DNA of 32,000 bases, from NCBI RefSeq assembly GCF_900167395.1, contig NZ_FUWK01000031.1, positions 3,594 to 35,593 of the forward strand. Reading direction: 5' to 3'. Of this stretch, positions 7,441-26,285 are shown one piece after another. The notes below the pieces were generated by a model. The model was not told the DNA's origin. It ran no database searches and saw only the letters and a program-made list of their open reading frames with translations. This stretch comes from Nitrosomonas europaea (GTDB lineage: Bacteria; Pseudomonadota; Gammaproteobacteria; Burkholderiales; Nitrosomonadaceae). Each line of letters begins with the position of its first letter. Positions within the stretch are counted from its first letter, which is position 1. Both the position numbers and the translations under genes were made by a program.

Positions 7441-7592
7441 GATCGATTCCGTATCAGAAAAAAGGCTGGCTTGCCCGGGAGGAGGGGGCTGGCTTGCCGT
7501 CACAAATCACTGGAAGAGGAGAGAGAACTGCCAGTGATTACCAGGAAAGTTGATGTTTGTCAGCGTGAGAGTACATCATGCAGGTTTACGGA

Positions 7593-7816: not shown

Positions 7817-7835
7817 GAGAATGATTATCATTATA
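7817..7835. promoter_or_regulatory. Fur box upstream of hemP
   Basis: GAGAATGATTATCATTATA matches the classical consensus GATAATGATAATCATTATC at 16 of 19 positions. It lies 27 bp upstream of the hemP start in an AT-rich spacer. Confidence 0.75.
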
Positions 7836-11936: not shown

Positions 11937-13256
11937 TTATGTCGTGGTTTCAACTGTATCGACGGGAGAACTGTTGATACTGGCCTGGCCTGATGTGATT
12001 TTTGTCAGTGCTGCTGCAAAGCTGGAAACACCGGTACCCTTGAACAGCAGGCAGGGTTTATGCCCCAGCCGGCAAAGCCTTTTGACCTGATAGTAAGCGG
12101 CGTGACTGACGTAATCAGTCGGGCAGATCACTGCTGCAGCGCCATAGATCATTTCCGGCAAGCGCGAAAGTGCATCTTCCTGGCCGCCATCATGGTGTGA
12201 TAATTTGAGGCCAAGCTGTCTGGCAAGTGTGCGGTATTGCGGCAGCAGCGTGGACCGGCCGCCTACGCACAGAATGCACTCGTAAGCAGCCATTTTCGTT
12301 TCGGTTGTATCCGCTGTTTCTGTATCTGTGGTGCTGCCAGAATTGAGGGTCAGCAGCAGATTTTCCAGTGTATCCCGCTCGACGCGAAGGGTATCGCGTT
12401 CGTGATAGAGCTCGGTCAGGTTGTGGCAGGCATTTTTGAGTGATTGCTTGAGATCATCGGCCTGTGCTGCTTTGATCTGCAGCTGCTCGTTTTCCACCGT
12501 TAGTTGCATCAGGCGCTGACCCATTCGCAGTATGGCCTGGCCTGATTCCAGTGTTTCCAGCCGTTGGCGGGTGGTCTCGCTTTCTCGCCGGGATTGCTGC
12601 AACTGCTTGATTTCAGCCGCGGCCTGTTGCAGTTGCTGGCGCAGGCGCGATTCGGTCTGTACGTGCTTCTCTCTGATCTGTTCCAGTTGCCCGGCCAGTT
12701 CCTTCAGCATTTGTTCTGCCTGGTTGAGCCGGTGCTGCGTGGCTGACAGCTCGGCAACCGCTTCATGCATGTGCATGTGAACCCTGTCATGGATCTGCTC
12801 TCTGCCTTCGGAGCTGATCCGTTTGTGGGTGAGTGCTGCCCATAATGGACCGGCTATTCTTTCGTTGGTAAAACAGGTTTCCCAAAGCGCCAGCACCTCG
12901 CTGTCGGTTTTGGCGGCGTCGAACTGTTTAATGTGGCTTTCGTACAATCTGTCCAGATATTTATGAATCGTTTCCGATACGACGTTTCTGGAGGTTACGC
13001 GGCAGACTGCTTCAACGTGCAGATCGTGCGCATTGTTTATCGAAGCTTTGAAATGAAAGCGTTTGGCAAAACGCTCGAGATCCGAGGCGGGCAGACAAAG
13101 GCCGATGACAGGACAGTGATAGGTTCTGCTCAGTTCCCAGATTTTTGAACGCTTCACCGGGGGAGAAGGGGAATCGGTTACCATAATCTCGGGCGATCCA
13201 TCTCCTGCTAATAAAGCATCGATTCCCGACTGTCGCAGAATGGCAGGTGCATGCAT
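11937..13256 (-). CDS. DUF2325 domain protein with a long central coiled coil (uncharacterised)
   Basis: Start is the ATG at 13256 after GAGGAGA. The Gln/Leu/Glu-rich region of roughly 160 aa (from about LSATQHRLNQAEQMLKELAGQLEQIREKH... to ...ERDTLENLLLTL) looks like heptad repeats. The C-terminus ILCVGGRSTLLPQYRTLARQLGLKLSHHDGG...AVICPTDYVSHAAYYQVKRLCRLGHKPCLLFKGTGVSSF is a DUF2325-like domain. Confidence 0.75.
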   Translation of the reverse strand: MHAPAILRQSGIDALLAGDGSPEIMVTDSPSPPVKRSKIWELSRTYHCPVIGLCLPASDLERFAKRFHFKASINNAHDLHVEAVCRVTSRNVVSETIHKYLDRLYESHIKQFDAAKTDSEVLALWETCFTNERIAGPLWAALTHKRISSEGREQIHDRVHMHMHEAVAELSATQHRLNQAEQMLKELAGQLEQIREKHVQTESRLRQQLQQAAAEIKQLQQSRRESETTRQRLETLESGQAILRMGQRLMQLTVENEQLQIKAAQADDLKQSLKNACHNLTELYHERDTLRVERDTLENLLLTLNSGSTTDTETADTTETKMAAYECILCVGGRSTLLPQYRTLARQLGLKLSHHDGGQEDALSRLPEMIYGAAAVICPTDYVSHAAYYQVKRLCRLGHKPCLLFKGTGVSSFAAALTKITSGQASINSSPVDTVETTT

Positions 13257-13322: not shown

Positions 13323-13341
13323 AATAACAATTATCATTAAC
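13323..13341. promoter_or_regulatory. Candidate Fur box upstream of the DUF2325/CbiX-like/heme-receptor gene string
   Basis: AATAACAATTATCATTAAC matches the Fur consensus at 14 of 19 positions. It lies 67 bp upstream of the 13256 start in an AT-rich stretch. Confidence 0.5.
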
Positions 13342-13411: not shown

Positions 13412-13457
13412 TGCGACAATTTGTCGCATTTCCATCCTTTTTGGAATCGGTTATTCT
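13412..13457 (+). promoter_or_regulatory. 17-bp palindromic operator plus predicted sigma70 promoter (site A)
   Basis: TGCGACAATTTGTCGCA (13412-13428) is a perfect palindrome. It is followed directly by TTTCCA (-35-like), a 17-nt spacer and TATTCT (-10-like, 13452-13457). The downstream gene starts at 13477. Confidence 0.6.
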
Positions 13458-13476
13458 CCGAATTTTTGCGTGAACC

Positions 13477-14718
13477 ATGAAGAAGTCGACCTATTCTTTC
13501 CCCACGCTGGCCGGATTCTTTCTCACACTCGCTTCTGTGGTTGCAATCGCAGCCGGGCCAGGTACCGGCGACCCAACTCAGCAACCGTCTGTCATGCAAG
13601 CCTCAAAGTCCCCAAAGACCGCACTTGCGGTGGGAGTAACACTGGATCAGGAAGGGCAGTTGTGGCTGGCAAAAGTGATTGATCAGCGCTTGCTGGTTTC
13701 CAGATCAGAAGACGATGGCAAGCATTTTTCCGAATCAGTGACGGTTACTCCTGTGCCGGAAAACATAGGCAATGATGGCGAAAATCGTCCCAAGATCCAG
13801 GTGGCACGTGATGGCACCGTGCTGGTCACCTGGACGGAGCTGCTGGCGGAAAAATATGCCGGAAATATAAAGTTCTCGCGTTCGACCGATTCAGGTCGGA
13901 CGTTCTCAGAGCCAATCGTTCTGAACGATGATGGCCGTGTGACCAGTCACCGCTTCGATTCCCTGGCAATCGACGGAAAAGGAAGGGTGGTGGTGGCCTG
14001 GCTGGATGCCAGAGATCGTGATGCAGCGAGGGAAAAAGGGGAGGAGTTCAAGGGGGTCTCACTCTACAGCAGTCAGTCGTTCGACAATGGCGCGCACTTT
14101 GAGCCAAACCGGCAAATTCATCAGCATACCTGCGAATGCTGCCGGACTGCGCTTACCTGGACCAGCGAGGGGCCGGTCGTGCTGCTGCGAAATATTTTCG
14201 GCACCAATACCCGTGATTTTGCCGTGGCCAGCCTGGATAAAGTGGAAGAAGGTGTCAGAAGAGTCACCCGCGATGAGTGGCAGATCGACGCCTGCCCGCA
14301 CAACGGTGGCAGTCTTGCGACAGATGGCAGGGGGCAATTGCATCTGACCTGGTTCACCAGCGGCACCGCTGCACAGGGGCAGTTCTATAAACGGATCAGC
14401 GGCAACCAGGAATCGGAACCCATGGCGCTGGGTGATATGGATGCGCAGCCCAACCATGCTGCAGTGGTGGCGCATGGTGAAACCGTCATCCTCACCTGGC
14501 GCGAATTTGACGGAAACGTGTATTCCGCAAAGATGATGTTTTCGAATGACGGTGGCGAAACCTGGAGTGAGCCATGGCGCCTGATGTTGTCTGCCGGCGC
14601 AAACGATTACCCGGTACCACTCATCAGTGACAGTAAAGCTCTGGTTGTATGGAATACCGAAAATGAGGGTTTGCGGGTTTTGTCCGTTGAAAGAGTCATC
14701 AACCGATCCGACGGCTGA
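13477..14718 (+). CDS. Secreted BNR/Asp-box repeat beta-propeller protein (sialidase-fold-like) with a conserved Cys cluster
   Basis: N-terminal signal peptide. Four Asp-box-like repeats: SRSEDDGKHFS, SRSTDSGRTFS, SQSFDNGAHFE and SNDGGETWS. Motifs HTCECCR (14131-14142) and ACPHNGG (14293-14301). Paralogous to 24553..25791. Confidence 0.8.
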   Translation: MKKSTYSFPTLAGFFLTLASVVAIAAGPGTGDPTQQPSVMQASKSPKTALAVGVTLDQEGQLWLAKVIDQRLLVSRSEDDGKHFSESVTVTPVPENIGNDGENRPKIQVARDGTVLVTWTELLAEKYAGNIKFSRSTDSGRTFSEPIVLNDDGRVTSHRFDSLAIDGKGRVVVAWLDARDRDAAREKGEEFKGVSLYSSQSFDNGAHFEPNRQIHQHTCECCRTALTWTSEGPVVLLRNIFGTNTRDFAVASLDKVEEGVRRVTRDEWQIDACPHNGGSLATDGRGQLHLTWFTSGTAAQGQFYKRISGNQESEPMALGDMDAQPNHAAVVAHGETVILTWREFDGNVYSAKMMFSNDGGETWSEPWRLMLSAGANDYPVPLISDSKALVVWNTENEGLRVLSVERVINRSDG

Positions 14719-14826
14719 GAATCTTTAAAACAATAATAAGCAGCAGGCGGCTTATGACATGGATCGCAATGGCATCAGGCGCTGCTGCAAATACTAATTA
14801 CCAATAAAAATCGAAAGGATCAGACC

Positions 14827-17379
14827 ATGAAGCAGTTCCCTCTGGCACTGATTGGCCTGCTTTGCGCCTCATCAGCCTGGGCAGCTCAAGATGTCGAACA
14901 ACAGAAACAGTTTTCCCGCAAAAATCTTTCAACACAGGCAGACAACAGTTCAGACGGAATCCGGGTATCAGGCGCAAACGGGGAGCACGCAGGGGAGCAG
15001 TTGGCGCAAGCGGCGGACGAACAGGTGCAAACCGGTAAATCGAGCAATAGTGACAACCTGAATGAACAGAAAGAGAAGGATAGTGGTGAGCCGGCTGGCC
15101 AGAATGAAACTGTTTTCAGGGAAATGGTAATTACAGGTGAAATAGAGCGGGATTCGCACTTTACTTCGCCTTCGATGCGCGTAACCCGGGCGCAGGTCGA
15201 ACAGCAGAATGCGCAAACTACCGAAGAAGTGCTCAAATACATGCCCAGCCTGCAAATACGTCAGCGCTACGTGGGCGATCCGAATGGTGTGTTGGGGATT
15301 CGCGGAGCCGATATGTTTTCAACTGCGCGCAGCATGGTTTATGCCGATGGTCTGCCGTTGCACAACTTTCTGCAGGCTTCTTTCAATGGTGCGCCGCGCT
15401 GGTCGCTGGTCGGTCCTAACGAAATCGACTCGGTTGATGTCGTTTATGGCCCTTTCTCGGCCGAGTACAGCGGCAACTCGATAGGGGGCGTTGCCAATAT
15501 CAGAACGCGCATGCCGCACAAGCAGGAATTTTACTTTGAAGGCAGCCTGTTCATTCAGCCCTACAAGAATTACGGGGAGGATAAAGGAACATTCATTGGT
15601 GACCGGCAGTATTTTTCCTACGGCAACAGGATTCAGGACAAGTTTACGGTGTTCCTGGCTTACAACCGGCTGGAGGCTCAGGGTCAGCCAATGTCTTATT
15701 TTATTGATAATACCGGGTTGTCCAACGTGCCTGGAGGAACACCGGTGACGGGGGGTATCAGGACACCGGATACGCGCGGTACACCCAGTATCATTTATGG
15801 TGATACCGGTCCCGAAAAAGTGAATACTCACTTGTTCAAGGGTAAATTCGGGTACGACATCACTTCCGATCTGCAGGCGTTGTTTACCGTGGCGTATGAA
15901 GAGCGTACCCGCAACCAGAACCATCCGAGCAACTACCTGTATACGGCGAACGGGGATTATTTCTGGGGAGGGAATGCGCCTACCTGTAATTCGGTTGCCA
16001 CCTGTTCGACTCCGGGTAATGCTTCTCTGGATGGCACACGCTTCGATGTGGTGCGCAGTGGTTTCGGTGAAAGTCGTGACAAGCGTGAGACGCTGAATCT
16101 GGGTTTGTCGCTGCGCGGTGCGCTGACGCCCGACTGGGATGTCGATACCACATTCAGCTATTTCGATGTGTTGAAGGATATTCGTGCGACGGCGTTTTTC
16201 AATCATGCCGATCCGGGCAATACCGGTGCCGGGCAATTGCAGGATTTCCGCAAATTCAACTGGTGGAATTACGATCTCAAGCTGAGTACGCCCATGCTGC
16301 TGGGTTACGACAAACTGTCGTTTCTGGCCGGATACCATTTTGACCAGTACAACCTCAGTTTCCGGCAATATAGCCTGACCAGTTATGAAGATCTGACCCG
16401 GGGTGCATTGCAGGCCAACCGCAATAATGATGGCCGCACATCGACTCATGCGATCTTTGCCCAATCCATGTTCCGCTTCATGCCGGACTGGGATATTACC
16501 GCCGGTGTGCGTCAGGAATGGTGGGAAGCAAGCAAGGGAGTCGCCTCCAATGTGGCCGTGCCCGATCGCACCGAAACAGCCACTTCTCCGAAGGTTTCAC
16601 TGGGGTATGAGCCTGGACAGTGGAAATTCCGCTATTCCTTCGGGCGTGCGCACCGTTTCCCGGTGATTGCAGAGCTTTTTCAGTCACTTGGTACACCTAC
16701 CAGTATTCTGGTTGCGAATGCGACGCTCAAACCTGAAAATGGCGTGCATCATAATTTTATGATGGAGTACGGGTTACCGAAGGGTTATGTTCGTGTCAAC
16801 GTATTTCGGGATGACATCAAGGACGCCATCCGCCAGATCACTTCCGCCTCGGGAGCACTTACAACCAGCGCTTTCCAGAATATCGGTGAAGTTGGTACAA
16901 CCGGTGTGGAGCTGATCTTCGAACAGCGAAATATTCTGGGCTCACGGTTCGATTTTATGTTCAACGGTACCTGGATGAACTCAAAAGTGGAAGACGGGCC
17001 GGTCGTGAGATTTACCGAATCAACCGGCGTGCCTGCCAACTACAGTCTGACCGGGAAACAGGTCATTCGTCTGCCACACTGGCGAGTCAATGTTTTCGGT
17101 ACTTACCATGTGACGGATGCCTGGGATGTTTCCCTGTCCGGCCGCTATACCAGCGATTCCTATAATGATCCTGATAACAGGGACTATAAGAACAACGTAT
17201 TCGGTGCCCAGAGCGATTTCTTCTTCATGGATTTCAAGACCAGCTACCGGTATCGGTTCAACAACGGGCTGAAAAGCCGATTCTCATTCGGTATCAGCAA
17301 CCTCAACAACGACAAGGCCTGGGTATTTCATCCCTATCCGCAGCGTACCTATCTGCTCGAAGCTGCGTTCAGTTATTGA
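14827..17379 (+). CDS. TonB-dependent outer-membrane receptor with a long low-complexity N-terminal extension
   Basis: Signal peptide MKQFPLALIGLLCASSAWA, about 85 aa of Gln/Glu/Asp/Asn/Ser-rich sequence, then TonB-box-like ETVFREMVITG, a plug (LGIRGADMFSTARSMVYADGLPL) and a C-terminal strand LLEAAFSY. Confidence 0.9.
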   Translation: MKQFPLALIGLLCASSAWAAQDVEQQKQFSRKNLSTQADNSSDGIRVSGANGEHAGEQLAQAADEQVQTGKSSNSDNLNEQKEKDSGEPAGQNETVFREMVITGEIERDSHFTSPSMRVTRAQVEQQNAQTTEEVLKYMPSLQIRQRYVGDPNGVLGIRGADMFSTARSMVYADGLPLHNFLQASFNGAPRWSLVGPNEIDSVDVVYGPFSAEYSGNSIGGVANIRTRMPHKQEFYFEGSLFIQPYKNYGEDKGTFIGDRQYFSYGNRIQDKFTVFLAYNRLEAQGQPMSYFIDNTGLSNVPGGTPVTGGIRTPDTRGTPSIIYGDTGPEKVNTHLFKGKFGYDITSDLQALFTVAYEERTRNQNHPSNYLYTANGDYFWGGNAPTCNSVATCSTPGNASLDGTRFDVVRSGFGESRDKRETLNLGLSLRGALTPDWDVDTTFSYFDVLKDIRATAFFNHADPGNTGAGQLQDFRKFNWWNYDLKLSTPMLLGYDKLSFLAGYHFDQYNLSFRQYSLTSYEDLTRGALQANRNNDGRTSTHAIFAQSMFRFMPDWDITAGVRQEWWEASKGVASNVAVPDRTETATSPKVSLGYEPGQWKFRYSFGRAHRFPVIAELFQSLGTPTSILVANATLKPENGVHHNFMMEYGLPKGYVRVNVFRDDIKDAIRQITSASGALTTSAFQNIGEVGTTGVELIFEQRNILGSRFDFMFNGTWMNSKVEDGPVVRFTESTGVPANYSLTGKQVIRLPHWRVNVFGTYHVTDAWDVSLSGRYTSDSYNDPDNRDYKNNVFGAQSDFFFMDFKTSYRYRFNNGLKSRFSFGISNLNNDKAWVFHPYPQRTYLLEAAFSY

Positions 17380-17591
17380 AGTACAGGTGTTTTTCTGCCC
17401 GATTATGTGATCTGAAACATCAGTAAAAATATCTGCAGAGTGTGCTTACGTAATTGAAGCTACCGAGCTGTTAATGTGGGTTCGGTAGGATGAGGTTAAA
17501 GTATTGTGTTCGTGATGCTATGATGAGCCGACCCGATGCCGAAGAAAACCCCCGAGGTGGCGTCGGGTCTGCTGGTTTCAGGAGGAAACAC

Positions 17592-17870
17592 ATGAATCGC
17601 GATCGGGTTTTGGCAGTATTGCGCCATAGTAAACCTATGTTGGCCAGTCGGTACGGTGTTCGTCGTTTGGCTTTGTTCGGCTCCACAGCACGTGATGACA
17701 GTGATGTTGATGTGCTGATGGTATTCGATGGTGTGGCAAGTGCAGCGCGTTATTTTGGCGTTCAGTTCCACCTGGAAGATGCATTGGGTTGCTCGGTAGA
17801 TTTGGTATCCGAGAAGGCGCTGCGGCCGGAGCTGCGTCCTTTCATCGAAAAAGAAGCGGTTTATGTTTGA
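17592..17870 (+). CDS. Nucleotidyltransferase (MNT) domain protein, antitoxin of a type VII-like HEPN/MNT pair
   Basis: MNRDRVLAVLRHSKPMLASRYGVRRLALFGSTARDDSDVDVLMVF contains the GSxxR...D.D minimal nucleotidyltransferase motif. Start is the ATG at 17592 after CAGGAGGAAACAC. It overlaps the downstream HEPN reading frame by 8 nt. Confidence 0.88.
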   Translation: MNRDRVLAVLRHSKPMLASRYGVRRLALFGSTARDDSDVDVLMVFDGVASAARYFGVQFHLEDALGCSVDLVSEKALRPELRPFIEKEAVYV

Positions 17871-18201
17871 GTTGGCCCGCGAGTGGCGTTTTTACCTGAC
17901 TGACATGATCAGTTTCGCCGAGAAGGTGCAGATTACTCGACCAGATACGCTTTGAAGCCAGTGGCCTGAATTACGACACTACGCTGCGCAATCTCGAATT
18001 GATCGGCGAGGCAGCGACCCATATTCCGGATGATATCCGGTCGGTACTCCCGATATTCCTTGGCGTATGATTATTGCTACGCGCAATCGGCTGATACACG
18101 GTTATCTCGGTATCGATAACGATACGATCTGGAGCATCATTCAGGATGAGATTCCCAAACTCTTGCGACAATTGACTGCCATGCTGGAGTCAATCAGATA
18201 A
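17863..18201 (+). pseudogene. HEPN/DUF86 toxin gene disrupted by two frameshifts
   Basis: Three consecutive frames carry the pieces. Frame a: MFELAREWRFYLTDMISFAEKVQITRPDTL, stop at 17953-17955. Frame b: ...SGLNYDTTLRNLELIGEAATHIPDDIRSVLPIFLGV, then a stop. Frame c: IPWRMIIATRNRLIHGYLGIDNDTIWSIIQDEIPKLLRQLTAMLESIR, stop at 18199-18201. The HEPN RNase motif R-x4-H (RNRLIH) sits in the last piece. Confidence 0.8.
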
Positions 18202-18388
18202 TCCTCTCCACCATAAAATCAACAAATCGAAATAGATCTCCCGTTTTTGTACTTTGAAGTGGAGGCCGAGTTTCAGTAAGGCAGCCTGTTAAAATAGGTA
18301 TTAACAACCTCCTGAAACTGTATCCTGATTCGTCCGGTTTCAGGCAGGCGCCGGTTTTTGACGTAAATAACATTCAAAGATATCAATC

Positions 18389-19693
18389 ATGACAGCTCAG
18401 CGGTATGTACGAGATTTGCTGAATTTCATCGACCAGAGTCCCAGTCCGTGGCATGCGGTGGCTACAATCGAGGCAACGCTCAGGGAATTTCGGTTCATCC
18501 GGCTGGAAGAAACAGACAAGTGGGCGTTGCAGGCGGGTGGACGGTACTATGTAGTACGGGATGATTCCTCCATTGTTTTGTTTATCCTGGGGAGCAAGGC
18601 ACCTGCCGAATCGGGTTTCAGGATTGTCGGGGCGCATACCGACTCGCCCGGGTTGCGGATCAGGCCGAACGGGGTAAGCGCCAGCGATGGATTGGCCCGG
18701 CTCAAGGTCGAAATTTATGGCGGGCCGATTCTGGCGACGTTTACTGACCGGGATCTGAGCCTGGCCGGGCGCATCAGTTATACCGATGACGGTGGACAGG
18801 TTGCGCACAAACGGATTTGTTTTGATCAGCCTCTGCTGCGTTTGCCGAATCTGGCGATTCATATGAACCGGGGAGTCAATGAGGACGGGCTGAAGCTGCA
18901 TAAACAGAATGAGTTGCCGCTGTTGTTTGCACAACTGACCGACGATCAGTTGCCACAGCCTTATTTTCTGGCGTTGCTGGAACAGAAGGCCGGTATCCCC
19001 GCCACACAAATCCTGTCCTGGGATCTCGCGGTTTATGACACCCAGAAAGGGACACTCTGGGGAGCAAATCAGGAGTTTTACACCAACAGTCAGATCGATA
19101 ATCTGGCCAGTTGCCATGCCGGACTGCAGGCGGTACTGGACGATACCATTCTGGATCATGCCGAAAGTACGCTGGTATGCGCATTTTTCGATCATGAAGA
19201 AATCGGTAGTGAAAGTCATATTGGTGCCGGAGGCAGTTTCCTGTCCGATGTATTGCAACGCATCAATCTGGCGGTCTCACGAGATCCGGAGGATGGTGCG
19301 CGTGCGTTTGCCCGCAGTTTTCTGATCAGTGCAGATATGGCGCATGCCTATCATCCCAACTTTCCTTCATCCTACGATGCGGATCATAAAGTCTTCGTGA
19401 ACCGGGGTCCGGTCATCAAATTCAACGCCAACCGTCGCTATAGCTCCGAAAGTATTTCTGCTGCGCATTTCATGCGCTGGTGTGAAGCAGCCGGTGTACC
19501 TTACCAGCGTTATTCACACCGCTCCGATCTACCCTGCGGGAGTACCATCGGGCCGATTGCTTCGGCAAAGCTCGGCATACGCAGTATCGATATCGGCTGC
19601 CCGATGTGGGCGATGCACAGTATCCGGGAAAGCGCCGGTGTTCAGGACCATGAGTACATCATCAAGGCACTGAAGCAGTTTTTCAGTAGCTGA
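18389..19693 (+). CDS. apeB: M18 family aminopeptidase (aspartyl aminopeptidase-like)
   Basis: Resembles my recollection of Pseudomonas ApeB along its full length: LLNFIDQSPSPWHAV, GGRYYVVRDDSS, GAHTDSPGLRIRPN, DRDLSLAGR, IPNLAIHMNR, DNLASCHAGL, FDHEEIGS, GPVIKFNANRRY, CGSTIGPI and MHSIRE. Confidence 0.93.
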   Translation: MTAQRYVRDLLNFIDQSPSPWHAVATIEATLREFRFIRLEETDKWALQAGGRYYVVRDDSSIVLFILGSKAPAESGFRIVGAHTDSPGLRIRPNGVSASDGLARLKVEIYGGPILATFTDRDLSLAGRISYTDDGGQVAHKRICFDQPLLRLPNLAIHMNRGVNEDGLKLHKQNELPLLFAQLTDDQLPQPYFLALLEQKAGIPATQILSWDLAVYDTQKGTLWGANQEFYTNSQIDNLASCHAGLQAVLDDTILDHAESTLVCAFFDHEEIGSESHIGAGGSFLSDVLQRINLAVSRDPEDGARAFARSFLISADMAHAYHPNFPSSYDADHKVFVNRGPVIKFNANRRYSSESISAAHFMRWCEAAGVPYQRYSHRSDLPCGSTIGPIASAKLGIRSIDIGCPMWAMHSIRESAGVQDHEYIIKALKQFFSS

Positions 19694-19836
19694 GAAACTT
19701 CTGAAAAACTACCTGCGTTGCCATTTTTGCGTTAAAAATCGGTATCAAAATGCTCATTTATTATATATAAACTCCGCTTTTTCGCCGATTTTTGCCTTGA
19801 ACTGACTACCTCGCCGACGTTTTTCAGAGGTTCCCT
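19692..19836 (+). repeat. MITE-like palindromic repeat, copy 1 (about 145 bp)
   Basis: About 90% identical to the reverse complement of 31510..31655. Its ends are inverted repeats (left ...CTTCTGAAAAAC; right end reverse complement AGGGAACCTCTGAAAAAC). It begins at the apeB stop codon. A solo end-like sequence, AACCTCTGATTAAATC, follows at about 19839-19854. Confidence 0.75.
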
Positions 19837-19893
19837 GAAACCTCTGATTAAATCAATACTTCAAAATGCGTTTTATCCGCTGTTAGCCGGTGA

Positions 19894-19939
19894 TGCGACA
19901 ATTTGTCACATTGTTATGCCCTTTCTCCCGCTTTATGAT
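19894..19939 (+). promoter_or_regulatory. 17-bp palindromic operator plus predicted sigma70 promoter (site B)
   Basis: TGCGACAATTTGTCACA (19894-19910) differs from the perfect palindrome at one position. It is followed directly by TTGTTA (-35), a 17-nt spacer and TATGAT (-10, 19934-19939). Confidence 0.6.
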
Positions 19940-20054
19940 GGGTGCCCTGCAGTAACTGCAATCACTTTAAGGGTTTCATAACAGGGATAAAAACATGAAG
20001 GGAACAAAAAGGTTTGAGCAATCGCGACAACATCTGCTCAAGGCTGGGGATGCC

Positions 20055-22118
20055 ATGATCAGAAAACCGCTGGCGGTTGCGATGGTGGGTGTGCTGGCGG
20101 GCATGACATCGGTATGGGCGCAGGCAGAAAGTAAAAAGGAACCGGTGCAACTGGAAACAATCGAGGTCGTGGCATCCGGGCAGGGGTCGCTTACGGTTCC
20201 AACGCTGGTTGAGGCGCAGCATGAAATGCGCAAAATCCCGGGCGGAGCAAATATCATCGACAGCGAATCTTATGCCAATGGCCGGGGTTCGACACTGCAG
20301 GATGCGCTGGGGTATTCGCCGGGAGTGTTTGTTCAATCCCGTTTCGGTGCCGAGGAAGCGCGTCTGTCAATTCGCGGTTCCGGCATCCAGCGTTTCTTTC
20401 ACTTGCGCGGCATCAAGATTCTGCAGGATGGTTCGCGGGTGAATCTGGCTGATGGTGGCGCGGATTTTCAGGTGATCGAGCCACTGGCAGCACGCTATAT
20501 CGAAGTTTATCGGGGTGCCAATGCATTGCAGTATGGATCGACCACGCTGGGTGGTGCGATCAATTTCGTCACGCCCACCGGCTACGATGCTGAACGTTTC
20601 CGCGCACGTGGTGAGGCAGGCAGCTTTGGTTATAACCGCCTGATGCTTTCTTCCGGTGGTGTGCATGGTTCTCTGGATTATTTTGCCAGTGTTTCCCGCT
20701 ACAGTCAGGATGGTTTCCGTGACTGGTCGGAGCAGGAAAACTGGCGCATGTTCAGCAATGCCGGGTATCGAATCACGCCCGATCTGGAAACCCGTTTTTA
20801 CCTGACCTATACCAAAACCAATTCACAATTGCCAGGCGAGCTGACCAAAGCAGAACTGAAAGACAACCCGAAGCAGGCAAATTTCTTTAACAGCAATATA
20901 GCGCGGTACAAGCGGGATTTTGATTTGATCCGCGTGGCCAATCGTACTGTGATGAAATTGGGTGAGGCCCAGCAACTGGAATTTTCCGCATTCTATGCGC
21001 ATAAAAAAGTATGGCACCCGATTTATGTGGTGATGGAGCAGCCTTCGCATGATTACGGCCTTGGGTTGCGCTATATCAACGAAATGCCGATTGCCGGCTG
21101 GCGTAACCGGTTTGTGGCCGGTTTCGAGCCAAGCTGGGGCAAGGTGATGGATAACCAGTTCGTTAATATCAATGGTGAGGCTGGTCCGCGAATTCACAAA
21201 TATGATCAGGATGTCAGCAGTTATACGGTGTATGGAGAGAATCAGTTTTACCTGCTGCCGGAACTTGCACTGGTGGTGGGTGCCCAGTACACCAACATGA
21301 CACTCAAACAGAAAGATCTGCATACGGGTGATCCGCGGCAGAAGAAAAACTACGAACGCTTCACCCCCAAGGCAGGACTCATCTATGACCTGAATCCGGA
21401 AATTCAATTCTTCACCAACGTCAGTACCAGTTTCGAGCCACCCAGTTTTTCCGAGCTGGCCAGTTGGCAGGCGACACCGGTACTGGCCAGTGCCCAGCGC
21501 GCACTGACCTTCGAAGTGGGAAGCCGGGGCCGTTTTGGTATCGCCGAATGGGATGTTGCATTTTATCGCTCACATGTGCGCAATGAATTGCTTGCCCGCG
21601 TGGATCCAGTGTCCCGTTTCCCGATAGGAATGGTCAATGCGGATAAAACCGTGCATCAGGGAGTGGAATTGGGTCTGGATATGGAACTGGCAAAAATGCT
21701 TTACCTGCGCCAGATGTATACATTCAGCGATTTCAAGTTTGATGGCGACCCGCTTTTCGGAAACAACCAGCTGGCCGGTATTCCGCGCCATTTCTACAAG
21801 GCGGAGCTGCTCTATCGCCATCCTGCCGGCTATTATGCCGGTCCGAACGTGGAATGGTCACCCGAGAAGTATTATGTGGATCATGCCAATACGTTGTCTG
21901 TCGATACCTATGCGCTGCTTGGATTCAAGCTGGGTAAGCGCAACAAAACCGGCTTTTCCTGGTTTGTCGAGGGGCGTAACCTGACTAACCAGAAATATGC
22001 GGCGACGGTTTCCGTAACCGACATCGCGGGGGTTGGTGCCTTTGGTGGCGCAAACTCGGCCTTGTTCTTCCCGGGAGATGGCCGCTCCTTCTTTGCTGGT
22101 CTGGAGTATCGGATGTAG
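20055..22118 (+). CDS. TonB-dependent outer-membrane receptor (paralog B)
   Basis: Signal peptide MIRKPLAVAMVGVLAGMTSVWAQA, TonB-box-like LETIEVVA and a plug (ARLSIRGSGIQRFFHLRGIKILQDG). The ORF is open from ATG 19995, but the first 20 codons are not conserved with paralog C, so I prefer ATG 20055. It ends ...FFAGLEYRM. Confidence 0.88.
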   Translation: MIRKPLAVAMVGVLAGMTSVWAQAESKKEPVQLETIEVVASGQGSLTVPTLVEAQHEMRKIPGGANIIDSESYANGRGSTLQDALGYSPGVFVQSRFGAEEARLSIRGSGIQRFFHLRGIKILQDGSRVNLADGGADFQVIEPLAARYIEVYRGANALQYGSTTLGGAINFVTPTGYDAERFRARGEAGSFGYNRLMLSSGGVHGSLDYFASVSRYSQDGFRDWSEQENWRMFSNAGYRITPDLETRFYLTYTKTNSQLPGELTKAELKDNPKQANFFNSNIARYKRDFDLIRVANRTVMKLGEAQQLEFSAFYAHKKVWHPIYVVMEQPSHDYGLGLRYINEMPIAGWRNRFVAGFEPSWGKVMDNQFVNINGEAGPRIHKYDQDVSSYTVYGENQFYLLPELALVVGAQYTNMTLKQKDLHTGDPRQKKNYERFTPKAGLIYDLNPEIQFFTNVSTSFEPPSFSELASWQATPVLASAQRALTFEVGSRGRFGIAEWDVAFYRSHVRNELLARVDPVSRFPIGMVNADKTVHQGVELGLDMELAKMLYLRQMYTFSDFKFDGDPLFGNNQLAGIPRHFYKAELLYRHPAGYYAGPNVEWSPEKYYVDHANTLSVDTYALLGFKLGKRNKTGFSWFVEGRNLTNQKYAATVSVTDIAGVGAFGGANSALFFPGDGRSFFAGLEYRM

Positions 22119-22138
22119 GCGCATAAAATAGATCAAGG

Positions 22139-22166
22139 CGGCATACCCCGGTAATGAGGTATGCCG
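22139..22166 (+). terminator. Stem-loop after receptor B (possible weak terminator or processing site)
   Basis: CGGCATACC-N10-GGTATGCCG lies 20 bp after the stop. No clear U-tract follows, so its function is uncertain. Confidence 0.35.
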
Positions 22167-22254
22167 GGAAACCGAATAAAATGGTATTCCCTAGCTTTTT
22201 TTGCTGATCCGAATTTCGAATTAACCCGTTAATCCGTTTGTTTTTTCTTCAAGG

Positions 22255-22300
22255 TGCGACAATTTGTCGCATTGTGATGTCATTCTGCCAGGCTTAAGAT
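22255..22300 (+). promoter_or_regulatory. 17-bp palindromic operator plus predicted sigma70 promoter (site C)
   Basis: TGCGACAATTTGTCGCA (22255-22271) is a perfect palindrome identical to site A. It is followed directly by TTGTGA (-35), a 17-nt spacer and TAAGAT (-10, 22295-22300). Confidence 0.6.
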
Positions 22301-22405
22301 TGGCAGCGTGCAGTAATTGCCAATACTAATAATTCCAGAGGGAAGAAAATGAAGGAAAAGAAGGTTAAACAAGCTGGGCTTTATGAGTCATCGGGTGGAG
22401 AAATC

Positions 22406-24475
22406 ATGGCCCGGAAGCCGCTTGTCATTGTGCTGGCAGGTGTATTGGCAGCTATGGCAGCGCCATTGGCGCAAGCTCATGAGGTTGACGAGCCAGTACA
22501 GCTTGAAACAATAAAAGTGACTACATCTAAGGATGATTTACCTCTTACTGTGCCAAGTCTGCCGGAAGTGCAACAGAAAATGCGTCAGATTCCAGGGGGC
22601 GCGAATGTGATTGACAGCGAATCTTATGCTACCGGCCGTGCCTCGACGTTGCAGGATGCATTGGGTTATTCACCGGGTGTGTTTGTTCAACCTCGTTTTG
22701 GTGCTGAAGAAGCACGCCTGTCAATTCGTGGTTCCGGTATTCAGCGTACTTTCCATATGCGCGGTATCAAACTGTTGCAGGATGGCTCCCGGCTGAATCT
22801 GGCCGATGGCGGAGGGGATTTTCAGGCAATCGAGCCGCTGGCCGCACGCTATATCGAGGTATACCGGGGAGGTAATGCGCTGCAGTTTGGATCGACCACA
22901 CTGGGTGGTGCGATCAATTTCGTTACCCCTACCGGTTATGATGCCGAACGTTTCCGTGCGCGTGGTGAGGCAGGCAGTTTTGGTTATAACCGTCTGATGC
23001 TCTCTTCCGGCGGTGTGCATGGCTCGCTGGATTATTTTGCCAGCGTTTCCCGCTACAGCCAGGATGGTTTCCGTGACTGGTCAGAGCAGGAAAACTGGCG
23101 CATGTTCAGTAATGTGGGTTATCGCGTCAACTCCGATCTGGAAACCCGTTTTTATCTCACTTATACCAAAACTGATTCACAATTGCCGGGTAACCTGACC
23201 AAGGCACAGTTGAGAGCCAATCCCAAACAAGCGAATGCGGTTAGTCTGGCTGGTCGGCAGAAGCGGGATTTTGATCTGATCCGGGTGGCCAATCGCACTG
23301 TGCTTAAGCTGGGAAATAGCCAGCAACTGGAATTCTCCGCATTCTATTCACACAAGAAGTTGTGGCATCCGATCTTTCAGGTGCTGGATCAGCCATCGCA
23401 TGATTATGGCCTGGGGTTGCGCTATATAAATGAGATGCCGATTGCTGGCTGGCGCAACCGTTTTGTAGTTGGTTTCGAGCCGAGCTGGGGCACTGTTATG
23501 GATAATCGCTTCTTCAATAATGGTGGTAGAGCGGGTGCACGTACAGCCAAGTTTGATCAGAGTGCCAGCACTTATGACGTTTATGCGGAAGATCAGCTGT
23601 ACGTATTGCCAGAACTGTCACTGGTTGTGGGTGCGCAGTACAGTTATACGACACGTAAACAAAAGGATCTGTTTGGAGCAGGCGCCCAGGATAGAAGCAA
23701 GAACTACCAGCGCTTCACTCCCAAAGCAGGATTGATTTATGAGCTGAATCCGCATATTCAGTTTTTCAGTAACGTCAGTACCAGTTTTGAGCCTCCCAGT
23801 TTTTCCGAACTGACTGCCGGGCCGGTGGTTGCTCCGGTATTTGCAAAAGCTCAACGTGCGATCACATTTGAAGTTGGTAGCCGAGGTCATTTCGGTATAG
23901 CCGAATGGGATGTGGCGCTGTATCGGGCGCATGTACGTAATGAGTTGCTTGCCCGAGTGGATCCTATTACCAGTTCTTCACTGGGTACGGTCAATGCGGA
24001 TAAAACAGTGCATCAGGGGGTTGAACTGGGCCTTGATATCGAGCTGGTGAAAATGTTCTATTTGCGCCAGATGTACCTGTTCAATGATTTCAAATTCGAT
24101 GGGGATGCTTCTTTCGGTAATAATCAGTTAGCCGGCATCCCACGTCATTTCTACAAAGCGGAACTGACTTACCGTCATGCTGATGGATACTACGCCGGTC
24201 CGAATGTAGAATGGTCACCTCAGAAATACTATGTGGACCATGCCAATACGGTATATGCCAATTCCTATGCGCTGCTGGGTTTCAAAATCGGTAAACGGAG
24301 TAAGAGTGGATTTTCCTGGTTTGCAGAGGCACGTAACCTGACTGATCAGAAATACGCAGCTACTACAGGCGTAACAGATGTGGTTAAGTACAATAATGCG
24401 GGTGTTCTTCAGGATCAATTTTTCCTTCCAGGAGATGGACGCTCTTTCTTCGCGGGTCTCGAATATCGGATGTAG
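22406..24475 (+). CDS. TonB-dependent outer-membrane receptor (paralog C)
   Basis: Signal peptide MARKPLVIVLAGVLAAMAAPLAQA and TonB-box-like LETIKVTT. By eye it is highly similar to receptor B over the full length. The ORF is open from ATG 22349, but ATG 22406 (after GGTGGAGAAATC) is preferred by comparison with the paralog. It ends ...FFAGLEYRM. Confidence 0.88.
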   Translation: MARKPLVIVLAGVLAAMAAPLAQAHEVDEPVQLETIKVTTSKDDLPLTVPSLPEVQQKMRQIPGGANVIDSESYATGRASTLQDALGYSPGVFVQPRFGAEEARLSIRGSGIQRTFHMRGIKLLQDGSRLNLADGGGDFQAIEPLAARYIEVYRGGNALQFGSTTLGGAINFVTPTGYDAERFRARGEAGSFGYNRLMLSSGGVHGSLDYFASVSRYSQDGFRDWSEQENWRMFSNVGYRVNSDLETRFYLTYTKTDSQLPGNLTKAQLRANPKQANAVSLAGRQKRDFDLIRVANRTVLKLGNSQQLEFSAFYSHKKLWHPIFQVLDQPSHDYGLGLRYINEMPIAGWRNRFVVGFEPSWGTVMDNRFFNNGGRAGARTAKFDQSASTYDVYAEDQLYVLPELSLVVGAQYSYTTRKQKDLFGAGAQDRSKNYQRFTPKAGLIYELNPHIQFFSNVSTSFEPPSFSELTAGPVVAPVFAKAQRAITFEVGSRGHFGIAEWDVALYRAHVRNELLARVDPITSSSLGTVNADKTVHQGVELGLDIELVKMFYLRQMYLFNDFKFDGDASFGNNQLAGIPRHFYKAELTYRHADGYYAGPNVEWSPQKYYVDHANTVYANSYALLGFKIGKRSKSGFSWFAEARNLTDQKYAATTGVTDVVKYNNAGVLQDQFFLPGDGRSFFAGLEYRM

Positions 24476-24552
24476 AAATAATGATGGGAGTGGTGAGCTC
24501 ATAAACAAGCCATCTTCAGGTTTGATTGGCGATTAATTTCAAGGGATCGACG

Positions 24553-25791
24553 ATGTCAGTAAAACATTTCATTACAGCCGTTTCACTTGCTATGGTTTCC
24601 ACAGTAATTCCCCTGACCGTGACTGCTGAACAACATGCGCATGATGCTAAATCAGCAAAGCCCGGCCATGATATGAATAAAATGTGGGCGGAAATGCGCA
24701 CAAGAGCAGTCGGCATGGCTGTTTCCGTAGCGGCTGATGAAAAAGGGAAATTGTGGCTGGTTCGTATGCAGGATGGCCATATCCGGGTAAGTCATTCGGA
24801 AGATGGCGGCAAGCATTTTTCTGAAGGTGTAACGGTAAACCCGCAACCTGAAGCGATTCTTGCAGAAAACCAGAACCGGCCGAAGATCGCGGTGCGTAAC
24901 GGGGTGATCGCAGTAACCTGGGTACAGGCGCTGCCGAAGGTGTTTGCCGGGAATATCCGCTTTGCCCGTTCTGTCGATGGTGGTCGTACTTTTTCCGAGC
25001 CGGTAACTGTGAACGATGATCAGGGCGAAATCAGCCATGGTTTCAGTGCCTTGACACTGGGTGACAATGGCCGTGTGACATTGACCTGGTTCGACGGGCG
25101 TGAACGTGATGCAGCTGATAAGGGTGGGCAGAAGTATGTTGGCACCACGGTTTACTATGCAACGTCGGAAGACGGCGGAGCGAGTTTTTCTGCGAATCGC
25201 AAGTTGGCTGACCATGCCTGCGAATGCTGCAGAATCGGCATGACGCTCGATTCTGATGGGGTACCGGTTGTGTTCTGGCGGCATGTGTTCGAGGGCAGCA
25301 TGCGTGATTTCGCGCTGGCACGGCTGGATTCGCAACCCAAGGTGTTGCGGGCCAGTGAGGATGGTTGGGAAATCAATGCCTGTCCTCATCATGGCGGCGA
25401 CATTGCAGTGGATGAAGCCGGTAGCCGCCATCTGGCGTGGTTTACCGGGAATCCGCAGAATCCCGGATTGTTTTACCGGCGTGCTGACGGTGAGAATATG
25501 ACCGCACCGCACGCATTTGGTGACCTTGATTTTCAGCCGGGTTACCCAGCTGTATTTGCGTATGGAAAGAAGGTTTATCTGGTCTGGCGCGAATTTGATG
25601 GCAATAATTATCAATTGATGGCCTCCGTTTCGGCTGATCGTGGCGATACCTGGTCAGCAGCTCGTGCTGTGGCAACGACCGGTGGTGCAGCCGACCTGCC
25701 AGTATTTGTAGTCGGTGCACAGAAACCACTCGTCGTGTGGAACAGTGCCAGAGATGGAGTGCGCTTCTTTAATGCAGAGGGGGATTTATGA
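24553..25791 (+). CDS. Secreted BNR/Asp-box repeat beta-propeller protein with a conserved Cys cluster (paralog of 13477..14718)
   Basis: Start is the ATG at 24553 after AAGGGA. It has a signal peptide. Asp-boxes are SHSEDGGKHFS, ARSVDGGRTFS, TSEDGGASFS and SADRGDTWS. Motifs are HACECCR (25218-25229) and ACPHHGG (25381-25389). Roughly half its residues match the 13477 protein by eye. Confidence 0.8.
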   Translation: MSVKHFITAVSLAMVSTVIPLTVTAEQHAHDAKSAKPGHDMNKMWAEMRTRAVGMAVSVAADEKGKLWLVRMQDGHIRVSHSEDGGKHFSEGVTVNPQPEAILAENQNRPKIAVRNGVIAVTWVQALPKVFAGNIRFARSVDGGRTFSEPVTVNDDQGEISHGFSALTLGDNGRVTLTWFDGRERDAADKGGQKYVGTTVYYATSEDGGASFSANRKLADHACECCRIGMTLDSDGVPVVFWRHVFEGSMRDFALARLDSQPKVLRASEDGWEINACPHHGGDIAVDEAGSRHLAWFTGNPQNPGLFYRRADGENMTAPHAFGDLDFQPGYPAVFAYGKKVYLVWREFDGNNYQLMASVSADRGDTWSAARAVATTGGAADLPVFVVGAQKPLVVWNSARDGVRFFNAEGDL

Positions 25792-26285
25792 TGCGTCGTT
25801 TACTGTTTATCTGGCTGTTGACGATAGCCGGGGTTGCATCGGCGACCGAGGGTGTACGTCCGTTTGTACTCGGAAGTATGACGCAGATTCAGGAAGAGCA
25901 TGCAGGCAAACCTTTCGTACTGTTTCTCTGGTCGCTGACATGTACTTACTGTCCAACTGAACTGAAAATGCTTGGTGAATTCAAGCAGCAGCATCCTGAT
26001 CTGAATCTGGTGCTGATTGCGGCGGATACGCCGGATGATGAGCCGGAGATCGTTTCTCATCTTGCTGATTACGGGTTGAACAAGGTCGAGCGGTGGGTGT
26101 TTGCCGAGGATATGCCGGAACGCCTGCGTTTTGAGATCGACCGGCGCTGGTATGGCGAGGTGCCGCGCACCTATTTTTATGATCAGAGCCATCAGCGTGA
26201 AGCCAAGACCGGGCTGGTCGGCCAGGAATATGTCAAGAGTTGGCTGGCGCGTGTCGGTATGGATGCTTCGTCCGCAAGCAAGTGA
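25788..26285 (+). CDS. Periplasmic thioredoxin-fold protein (TlpA/ResA/DsbE-like thiol:disulfide oxidoreductase)
   Basis: Signal peptide MMRRLLFIWLLTIAGVASA. CxxC active site in a typical context (PFVLFLWSLTCTYCPTELKML). The start overlaps the BNR gene stop (ATGA at 25788-25791), which suggests translational coupling. Confidence 0.8.
   Translation: MMRRLLFIWLLTIAGVASATEGVRPFVLGSMTQIQEEHAGKPFVLFLWSLTCTYCPTELKMLGEFKQQHPDLNLVLIAADTPDDEPEIVSHLADYGLNKVERWVFAEDMPERLRFEIDRRWYGEVPRTYFYDQSHQREAKTGLVGQEYVKSWLARVGMDASSASK

Follow-up and report, generated by a model that had tools for sequence, protein, structure and literature searches.

Membrane kinases of the RegB type track quinone-pool redox state and the flux through the respiratory chain (PMC8191878, PMC11742914). 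Patterns for the DNA sites of the partner regulators RegA, PrrA, and RegR have been published (quoted in PMC5506826), but no strong motif was derivable in a chromatin immunoprecipitation sequencing (ChIP-seq) study of PrrA (PMC4263372). In Acidithiobacillus ferrooxidans, a RegA binding site lies upstream of the -35 hexamer (PMC5506826), and in Burkholderia, RoxSR exerts positive control over cyd and cio-1 (PMC11742914). Deletion of regA in Methylomonas brings a TonB-dependent receptor (TBDR), tonB-exbBD, and feo down to 3-23% of wild type (PMC13274454). RegA also binds copper in vitro, and the metal favours the formation of covalent dimers that retain DNA binding (PMC9147068). Here, we describe a 17-bp palindrome found at three predicted promoters in a 32,000-nucleotide (nt) stretch of DNA from Nitrosomonas europaea (contig NZ_FUWK01000031.1, positions 3,594 to 35,593; hereafter, the window). 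We propose, with considerable confidence, that this box is a high-affinity operator of RegA (ActR/PrrA/RegR/RoxR), the response regulator in the RegB/RegA two-component redox system, and that RegA most likely activates the three uptake units behind it.

A preliminary description of this DNA had placed the perfect palindrome at 13412 and 22255 and a one-mismatch copy at 19894. These positions were borne out when the pattern TGCGACAANTTGTCGCA was searched across the whole window with up to 3 mismatches allowed: there are exactly three matches, all on the plus strand, and 100 dinucleotide-preserving shuffles gave a mean of 0.24 matches, with none of the 100 reaching three. Relaxing the core to 3 mismatches yielded no extra sites in the window above chance. 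Each copy directly abuts a -35-like hexamer (3/3), and a 17-nt spacer and a -10-like hexamer follow, as the preliminary description had also claimed and as our own reading of the sequence confirms. The hexamer pairs are TTTCCA (13429-13434) and TATTCT (13452-13457) at site 1, TTGTTA (19911-19916) and TATGAT (19934-19939) at site 2, and TTGTGA (22272-22277) and TAAGAT (22295-22300) at site 3. If transcription starts about 7 nt past the -10 hexamer, the dyad centres (13420, 19902, and 22263) would lie near -44. The proteins of the window are identical to CAD85440-CAD85451 of N. europaea ATCC 19718 (NE1529-NE1540), with locus tags assigned from the gene order in a published expression table (PMC6967387 Data Set S1). 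The downstream units have the composition reported earlier: a BNR propeller plus a TBDR, a TBDR alone, and a TBDR plus a BNR propeller plus a TlpA-like protein of the thioredoxin fold. The boxes, promoters, and genes are as follows.

13412..13428, plus strand: box 1, perfect 17-bp palindrome TGCGACAATTTGTCGCA with 0 mismatches, putative RegA-type operator
13429..13457, plus strand: predicted sigma-70 promoter of NE1537-NE1536 (sequence reading)
13477..14718, plus strand: NE1537 (CAD85448.1), BNR/sialidase-like beta-propeller, behind box 1
14827..17379, plus strand: NE1536 (CAD85447.1), TonB-dependent receptor of 850 aa, box 1 unit
19894..19910, plus strand: box 2, TGCGACAATTTGTCACA with 1 mismatch (TCACA), putative RegA-type operator
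19911..19939, plus strand: predicted promoter of NE1532 (sequence reading; hexamer pair also picked by a generic promoter scan of the window)
19995..22118, plus strand: NE1532 (CAD85443.1), TonB-dependent receptor of 707 aa, behind box 2
22255..22271, plus strand: box 3, perfect palindrome TGCGACAATTTGTCGCA with 0 mismatches, putative RegA-type operator
22272..22300, plus strand: predicted promoter of NE1531-NE1529 (sequence reading)
22349..24475, plus strand: NE1531 (CAD85442.1), TonB-dependent receptor of 708 aa, behind box 3
24553..25791, plus strand: NE1530 (CAD85441.1), BNR/sialidase-like beta-propeller, box 3 unit
25788..26285, plus strand: NE1529 (CAD85440.1), TlpA-like thiol:disulfide oxidoreductase with a CTYC motif, box 3 unit

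Sites 2 and 3 are not independent of each other, because NE1531 and NE1532 are tandem paralogues (75.6% identity) and the 60 nt after their boxes share 38/60 bases. Before the box, however, the two sites share only 16/60 bases, and the box itself differs at a single base. Site 1 has nothing in common with sites 2 and 3 except the box and the positions of the hexamers. The BNR propellers NE1530 and NE1537 are 46% identical.

The palindrome closely fits the published sites of RegA and its relatives. Its 15-bp core GCGACAATTTGTCGC agrees with the Rhodobacter capsulatus RegA motif SSGNVRDNHYSNCSS at 15/15 positions, with the PrrA motif YSCGGC(N5)GWCRMA at 11/12 positions in the same 17-bp frame, and with the RegR motif GNGRCRTTNNGNCGC at 10/11 positions. 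The nearest of the listed ChIP-seq sites is that of the RegA-activated cydA, GTGACAATTTGTCCC, with 13/15 matches (site from PMC5359404).

The same regulator emerges from the genes that accompany the box in other genomes. One genome per species was scanned with TGCGACAATTTGTCRCA, and the 8-kb stretches of at least 120 loci with an exact 17-mer (designated by L numbers) were examined; the listed matches, to which the counts below refer, did not extend to the N. europaea genome. Because about 140 chance matches are expected for the whole genome collection (our own arithmetic), the raw count of 17-mers proves nothing, and it is the content of the loci that carries the argument. Proteobacteria, mostly of the beta and gamma classes, account for about 104 of the 120 loci; the main taxa are Nitrosomonas, Nitrosospira, Gallionella, Sideroxydans, Methylotenera, Rhodocyclales, Methylococcales, Cellvibrionales/Porticoccaceae, Kangiella, Pseudoalteromonas, and Cycloclasticus. 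Clustering of the open reading frames (ORFs) in the 120 loci showed that the top recurrent families other than receptors are a kinase of ~430 aa and a regulator of ~180 aa with REC and Fis-type helix-turn-helix (HTH_8) domains, which is the domain layout of RegB/RegA (PrrB/PrrA, ActS/ActR, RoxS/RoxR). A RegA with the helix MHRR[ST]LQR[KI]L is encoded in 13 loci, and at least 15 loci have regA and/or regB on the 8-kb stretch that holds the box. These genes are usually either divergent from the box promoter or placed immediately after the box, as in the Nitrosomonas locus L019, where the box stands ahead of regB. By our own estimate, the chance that a given two-gene operon falls in a random 8-kb piece of a 3-4 Mb genome is ~0.2%. 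Apart from RegB/RegA, no regulator family was recurrent around the box in these 120 loci.

The protein sequences point in the same direction. The L019 regulator matches 3rqi (E=1e-50) and the PrrA effector domain 1umq in the PDB, and JGI and UniRef name the Nitrosomonas proteins RegA. In N. europaea, regA is NE1313 (CAD85224.1, P0178; 177 aa, REC plus HTH_8) and stands beside the gene for a six-transmembrane kinase, regB (NE1314). The pair was seen in ATCC 19718 (AL954747.1, L128), whose proteins are identical to those of the window, and in other N. europaea assemblies; it would lie ~200 kb from the window if the source chromosome is colinear with that of ATCC 19718. The recognition helix of N. 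europaea RegA, LNMHRRTLQR, is identical to that of PrrA. Its DNA-recognition stretch, LNMHRRTLQRKL, aligns with LNMHRRTLQRIL of PrrA 1umq (E=3.6e-12) and is also identical to that of 3rqi. N. europaea RegB has the quinone motif GGSTNPF (general form GGXXNPF) at residue 98, the H-box AAHELGTPL with His221, and, exactly 40 residues later, Cys261 at the place of the redox-active cysteine; a quinone motif and a conserved cysteine are the hallmarks of RegB (PMC8191878). The preliminary description had left the regulator unnamed, and on this point it needs revision: the box reads as an idealised RegA/PrrA/RegR operator, regBA accompanies it in other genomes, and N. europaea itself encodes RegB and RegA. 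That description was right that the window contains no regulator gene.

The promoter geometry of the window is also found elsewhere. We compiled a position profile from 125 of the listed sites, 109 of them proteobacterial and 16 non-proteobacterial. T occupies position 18 in 93 sites and position 19 in 74, and a TAnnnT hexamer stands at positions 41-46, which is exactly the geometry of the window (the -10 hexamer of site 1, for example, occupies box positions 41-46). TANNNT is found exactly at 41-46 in 54/109 proteobacterial sites and within 1 nt in 70/109, versus 4 and 10, respectively, in the mirror orientation and a background rate of 0.018 per position; in the 16 non-proteobacterial sites, the hexamer is never found exactly there. 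Even the perfect palindromes are oriented, as judged by the central T (28 versus 4). The TCACA variant of box 2 occurs in 48/109 proteobacterial sites, and the -35 hexamers are weak (TTnnCA). When the NE1537 promoter was aligned with those of four Nitrosospira genomes (alignment A1), box 1 and TTATTCT were invariant and the flanks diverged; likewise, the box and the -10 hexamer were invariant, between diverging flanks, when the NE1531 and NE1532 promoters were aligned with those of N. eutropha, another Nitrosomonas, and Nitrotoga (alignment A2). NE1537 orthologues stand behind the box in L008, L010, L113, and L117. The palindrome had been described as a promoter-linked cis element rather than a dispersed repeat of the repetitive extragenic palindromic (REP) type, and this view holds: the box is neither spread at random nor absent from orthologous promoters, being kept in Nitrosomonas, Nitrosospira, and Nitrotoga, and the same geometry precedes a coherent set of envelope and uptake genes in many beta- and gammaproteobacteria.

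Two further elements were observed at these promoters. In the NE1537 promoter (13435-13457), the spacer and -10 region CCTTTnnGnAATCGnTTATTCT is kept between Nitrosomonas and Nitrosospira beyond the box, and a second operator may overlap the -10 hexamer there. The NE1532 leader contains a 6-1-6 palindrome, TGCAGTAACTGCA (19948-19960), with a degenerate copy in the NE1531 leader (22309-22321); it is not kept in the orthologues of N. eutropha or other Nitrosomonas.

Uptake and copper handling dominate among the genes behind the box. In a census of 71 promoter-type sites among the matches listed, the first gene encodes a TBDR at 24/71 sites, an outer-membrane protein of the Phenol_MetA_deg/DUF3570 type at 7/71, a BNR propeller at 4/71, MbnP at 3/71, PepSY_TM at 3/71, Sco1/SenC at 2/71, and an amidohydrolase at 2/71; DUF1775/YcnI, ExbB (L051), a RegB kinase, and others account for 1 of the 71 each. 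Genuine periplasmic copper-handling genes (PCuAC, Sco1, MbnP, MbnH-like peroxidase) are present in at least 9 loci, and at least 15 loci carry receptors whose best NCBIfam match, below the cut-off, is a copper receptor family. A recurrent module of an outer-membrane channel, a TlpA-like protein, and a BNR propeller resembles the NE1531-NE1529 operon. The uptake regulon had earlier been called dedicated. This is not supported: RegB/RegA is a global redox system, although its strongest beta- and gammaproteobacterial boxes concentrate on uptake and copper-handling genes.

Several other observations were made at these loci. The module of Phenol_MetA_deg/DUF3570, a TlpA-like redoxin, and a BNR propeller occurs in L009, L024, L091, and L071, and in L044, L052, and L062, often by regBA, and its Nitrosomonas version adds two uncharacterised proteins of ~250 and ~155 aa. 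In L107 (position 498; an N. eutropha metagenome-assembled genome), the box stands ahead of a gene for an extracytoplasmic function (ECF) sigma factor with a TBDR further downstream, and RegA may stand atop a sigma-factor cascade there. In four proteobacterial genomes from lake metagenomes (L014:3527, L058:6998, L060:1826, and L073:1009), the box promoter is followed by a conserved stretch that includes caacttttgaaatttcttcactattttttt and has no clear ORF, which could be a small RNA or a leader; wherever regBA is present in these loci, the box promoter is divergent from it. In ATCC 19718 (L128:3457-6534), regB-regA lies directly behind ccp (NE1315), a di-haem cytochrome c peroxidase gene, and MbnH-like di-haem peroxidases also occur within box-controlled operons of L006, L037, L049, and L057.

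The proposed identification of the box as a RegA operator draws on the motif match, the linkage to regBA, the promoter geometry, and the presence of the residues that define RegB and RegA. We hypothesize that RegB would phosphorylate RegA and that a RegA~P dimer would bind from about -52 to -36, against the weak -35 hexamers of the three sigma-70 promoters, where it would aid RNA polymerase in a class-II-like activation from about -44. Its targets would be NE1537-NE1536 (BNR propeller and TBDR), NE1532 (TBDR), and NE1531-NE1529 (TBDR, BNR propeller, and TlpA-like protein). If the respiratory chain, which depends on copper and haem, no longer carried electrons properly, RegA~P would raise TonB-dependent uptake and periplasmic cofactor handling. 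We infer the binding by RegA, the sign of the regulation, the inducing signal, and the substrates of the receptors. Activation is plausible because the box abuts the promoter with rigid spacing and orientation, and because of the precedents in Methylomonas, A. ferrooxidans, and Burkholderia. A response to cofactor shortage through uptake and cofactor insertion is suggested by the copper-handling genes behind the box elsewhere, by the copper binding of RegA, and by the signal that RegB follows. In NCBIfam typing, all matches of the TBDRs in the window fell below the cut-off, and no substrate could be assigned. A sequence search of the PDB returned no match for the BNR propeller and only weak thioredoxin-fold matches for the TlpA-like protein, and a literature search on NE1531, NE1532, NE1536, and NE1537 found nothing relevant.

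A broader conjecture can be offered only tentatively, and we think it may well fail. In betaproteobacteria and gammaproteobacteria, ammonia and methane oxidisers among them, RegB/RegA might be a starvation regulator for the acquisition of copper, and perhaps of respiratory iron and haem. It might sense shortage through a stalled copper-dependent chain or through copper binding by RegA, and it might switch on TBDRs, BNR/TlpA modules, Sco1, PCuAC, and MbnP/MbnH via the box at about -44.

A number of results weigh against RegA as the activator of these units. In chemostats limited for NH3 versus O2, the expression of NE1531, NE1532, and NE1536 was unchanged, and NE1537, alone of these four genes, rose under O2 limitation (from 12.9 to 33.0 transcripts per million [TPM]; 2.6-fold, p=0.02; PMC6967387 Data Set S1). 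These data are not what a simple low-O2 RegB switch predicts. The best NCBIfam matches of the L019 proteins are ActR/PrrA/RegA for the regulator (196.9 bits) and ActS/PrrB/RegB for the kinase (272 bits), below the equivalog cut-offs of 250 and 350, respectively. No box with up to 3 mismatches occurs within 6 kb of N. europaea regBA, so autoregulation is unsupported there. The motifs of the alphaproteobacterial RegA family are degenerate, and searches with them failed in A. ferrooxidans (PMC5506826). Finally, ChIP in Methylomonas detected RegA only at feo, and not at the TBDR or tonB promoters (PMC13274454). The same expression table gives ~160-210 TPM for NE1530 and NE1529 versus ~50-60 TPM for NE1531 (PMC6967387 Data Set S1), a difference that suggests an internal promoter in the NE1531/NE1530 gap (24476-24552) or differential mRNA stability in the third unit.

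We weighed four other explanations of the box. RegA could occupy it and act in the opposite sense, repressing or anti-activating the units by occluding the UP-element and the -35 hexamer until it is dephosphorylated or modified. Many R. capsulatus targets are indeed repressed by RegA, such as ccoN with GCGACCGTTCGTCGC (PMC5359404); the three units show low to moderate expression that scarcely responds to O2 limitation (PMC6967387); and a copper-replete repressor form is conceivable, because the covalent copper-promoted RegA dimers still bind DNA (PMC9147068). We nevertheless consider repression unlikely. The box stops just before the -35 hexamer and covers neither it nor the -10 hexamer, hexamers as weak as TTnnCA are typical of activator-dependent promoters, and rigid spacing and orientation are what contacts between an activator and the polymerase need. 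Moreover, Methylomonas RegA activates TBDR, tonB, and feo expression (PMC13274454), and cydA, which has the nearest ChIP site, is activated (PMC5359404). The palindrome might instead be read by a different factor yet to be named, for example a metal-sensing repressor, with the likeness to RegA sites and the proximity of regBA being coincidental or a matter of co-regulation. This seems quite improbable to us, given that no other regulator family recurs among the 120 loci (DUF2325 is in only 1/120), that regA or regB is found in at least 15 of these 8-kb stretches versus the ~0.2% chance estimate, and that the RegA recognition helix is identical to those of the proteins that defined the GCG-inverted-repeat motif. 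Such a factor would be in keeping with the frequency of Sco1, PCuAC, and MbnP/MbnH-like copper genes among box targets and with L043, which carries an OmpR-type regulator and a kinase downstream of a DUF1775 gene. In addition, the published RegA motifs are degenerate (by our own estimate, a random 15-mer fits SSGNVRDNHYSNCSS at ~2e-4), and there is no gammaproteobacterial reference motif, because RoxR gave no sites in DNA affinity purification sequencing (DAP-seq) in Pseudomonas aeruginosa (PMC8599809).

The two remaining explanations deny that the box is an operator at all, and we find both barely credible. According to one, the palindrome acts as a nucleic-acid hairpin (a terminator, a REP-like element, or a 5' RNA structure). 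A simple scan did mark site 1 as terminator-like, and the perfect copies have single-strand folding energies of about -7 to -8 kcal/mol, but the fold of site 2 is no more stable than that of shuffled sequence (z=-0.7), Rfam gave no match, and the element would not be transcribed from these promoters, because it lies upstream of the predicted -35 hexamers. Base pairing does not appear to be under selection either: when the left arm is held constant, G occupies the pairing position in 61 and A in 48 of the 109 proteobacterial sites, so 48/109 have a C-A mismatch without compensation. Both the orientation and the distance to the -10 hexamer are conserved, whereas the non-proteobacterial chance matches lack the geometry. 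According to the other, the likeness of the sites is a functionless remnant of a local promoter duplication in the cluster, as the tandem paralogy of NE1531 and NE1532 and the similarity of their leaders would allow. The regions upstream of these two boxes have diverged far more than the boxes, however, the flanks of site 1 are unrelated, and the same 17-mer with the same geometry occurs in two proteobacterial classes and in orthologous promoters.

Other candidates for the reader or the nature of the box were rejected on narrower grounds. The best window matches to the Fur-family box, for which the AT-rich 19-bp consensus was used, are at 7817 and 13323, with none at the three boxes, in agreement with the earlier statement that the palindrome is not a Fur box; the idea of a Fur paralogue was dropped after the linkage to regBA was found. 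The CusR/CopR copper box has the consensus TGACAA-NN-TTGTCA, and its half-site is similar to that of the palindrome, but GACAA-T-TTGTC has one central base, not two, and OmpR-type regulators are not recurrent neighbours of the box in the 120 loci, L043 being the one exception. DUF2325, encoded by the divergent neighbour of site 1, was dismissed as the regulator on account of its single occurrence among the box loci. A sigma-54 promoter, PhoB-type direct repeats, and a CRP-type 5-N6-5 site were rejected by sequence reading alone, as their spacing does not fit and the palindrome has odd-length symmetry. An intrinsic terminator or REP element would be expected at 3' ends with a T-run and selection for pairing; what was found is a fixed position upstream of promoters.

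The surroundings of the three units hold a second type of putative operator. A Fur-like box at 7817-7835 (17/19 matches to the Escherichia coli consensus) heads the minus-strand operon of NE1541 and a multicopper oxidase gene, and another at 13323-13341 (15/19 to the same consensus) heads the minus-strand operon of NE1538 (DUF2325), a CbiX-like gene, and the haem receptor gene NE1540. The two DUF2325 paralogues, NE1541 and NE1538, are each the first gene of a Fur-box operon.

6697-7503, minus strand: NE1541, DUF2325, leading the Fur-box operon with the multicopper oxidase gene
11937-13256, minus strand: NE1538, DUF2325, leading a Fur-box operon, divergent neighbour of site 1

Because the Fur-like boxes head minus-strand operons, one receptor cluster appears to be divided between Fur-box and RegA-box promoters. 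NE1541 expression was 17.7-fold higher under O2 limitation than under NH3 limitation (from 43 to 759 TPM; PMC6967387 Data Set S1). The cluster sits in a neighbourhood rich in mobile elements (17490-17870 in the window and 5597-5853 in L001): the units of box 1 and box 2 are separated by a nucleotidyltransferase/HepT-like toxin-antitoxin pair, and ParDE, insertion sequence (IS) elements, and a resolvase are located just beyond the window end.

The RegA operator has so far been hard to define, being degenerate in Rhodobacter, unfound in A. ferrooxidans, and silent in DAP-seq of Pseudomonas RoxR. The 17-mer with its fixed -10 spacing would provide a high-information operator for the beta- and gammaproteobacterial branch, making genome-by-genome prediction of the regulon possible. 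It would also provide a set of RegB/RegA targets in a model ammonia oxidiser, where the system is apparently unstudied in the literature searched, and it would divide the receptors of one cluster into a class behind Fur boxes and a class behind RegA boxes. The genes for Sco1, PCuAC, MbnP/MbnH-like proteins, and OprC-like receptors behind the box elsewhere suggest a link between respiratory-chain status and copper supply, which would matter for copper-dependent ammonia and methane oxidation.

The layout of the window's promoters recalls that of class II activators. At CRP/FNR sites (centre -41.5) and LuxR-type boxes, a dimer sits on a palindrome that abuts or overlaps a weak -35 hexamer and is strictly spaced from the -10 hexamer. 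The box has a similar layout, but its putative reader belongs to another protein family, its length is odd (8-1-8), its centre lies ~2.5 bp further upstream, and it has one fixed orientation, in which the central T lies on the strand that reads in the direction of transcription. The neighbouring Fur-like boxes at 7817 and 13323 are likewise putative metal-uptake operators in the same cluster, but they have an unrelated AT-rich sequence and serve minus-strand operons, and the three box promoters contain none of them.

Among RegB/RegA systems themselves, the alphaproteobacterial RegA, PrrA, and RegR operators (R. capsulatus, Rhodobacter sphaeroides, and Bradyrhizobium japonicum) are likewise GCG-type inverted repeats with a 5-nt central spacer, the cognate recognition helix is identical, and the kinase has the same quinone motif and His-Cys spacing. 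The alphaproteobacterial sites, however, are degenerate and variably spaced and placed, whereas the site described here is a 17-mer that scarcely varies and is held at a single distance from the -10 hexamer; the alphaproteobacterial targets are photosynthesis, CO2 fixation, and N2 fixation genes, whereas those in the window are outer-membrane uptake genes. RoxS/RoxR of Pseudomonas and Burkholderia belong to the same protein family, respond to the state of the respiratory chain, and positively control the cyd/cio oxidases (PMC11742914). Their known targets are terminal oxidases, and receptor or copper-chaperone targets are not described there; no operator definition was found for them in the literature searched, and RoxR DAP-seq was without reproducible sites (PMC8599809). 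In Methylomonas sp. DH-1, expression of a gammaproteobacterial TBDR, tonB-exbBD, and feo depends on RegA (PMC13274454), and the box described here precedes TBDRs, and ExbB in L051; that study, however, gave no motif, read the TBDR and tonB effects as indirect, and had iron as its theme (PMC13274454). Our literature search did not find the full operator string in print, its half-sites matching only primers. The kind of element is therefore known, and what appears to be new is its sharp 17-bp form, its fixed promoter architecture in two proteobacterial classes, and its targets in N. europaea.

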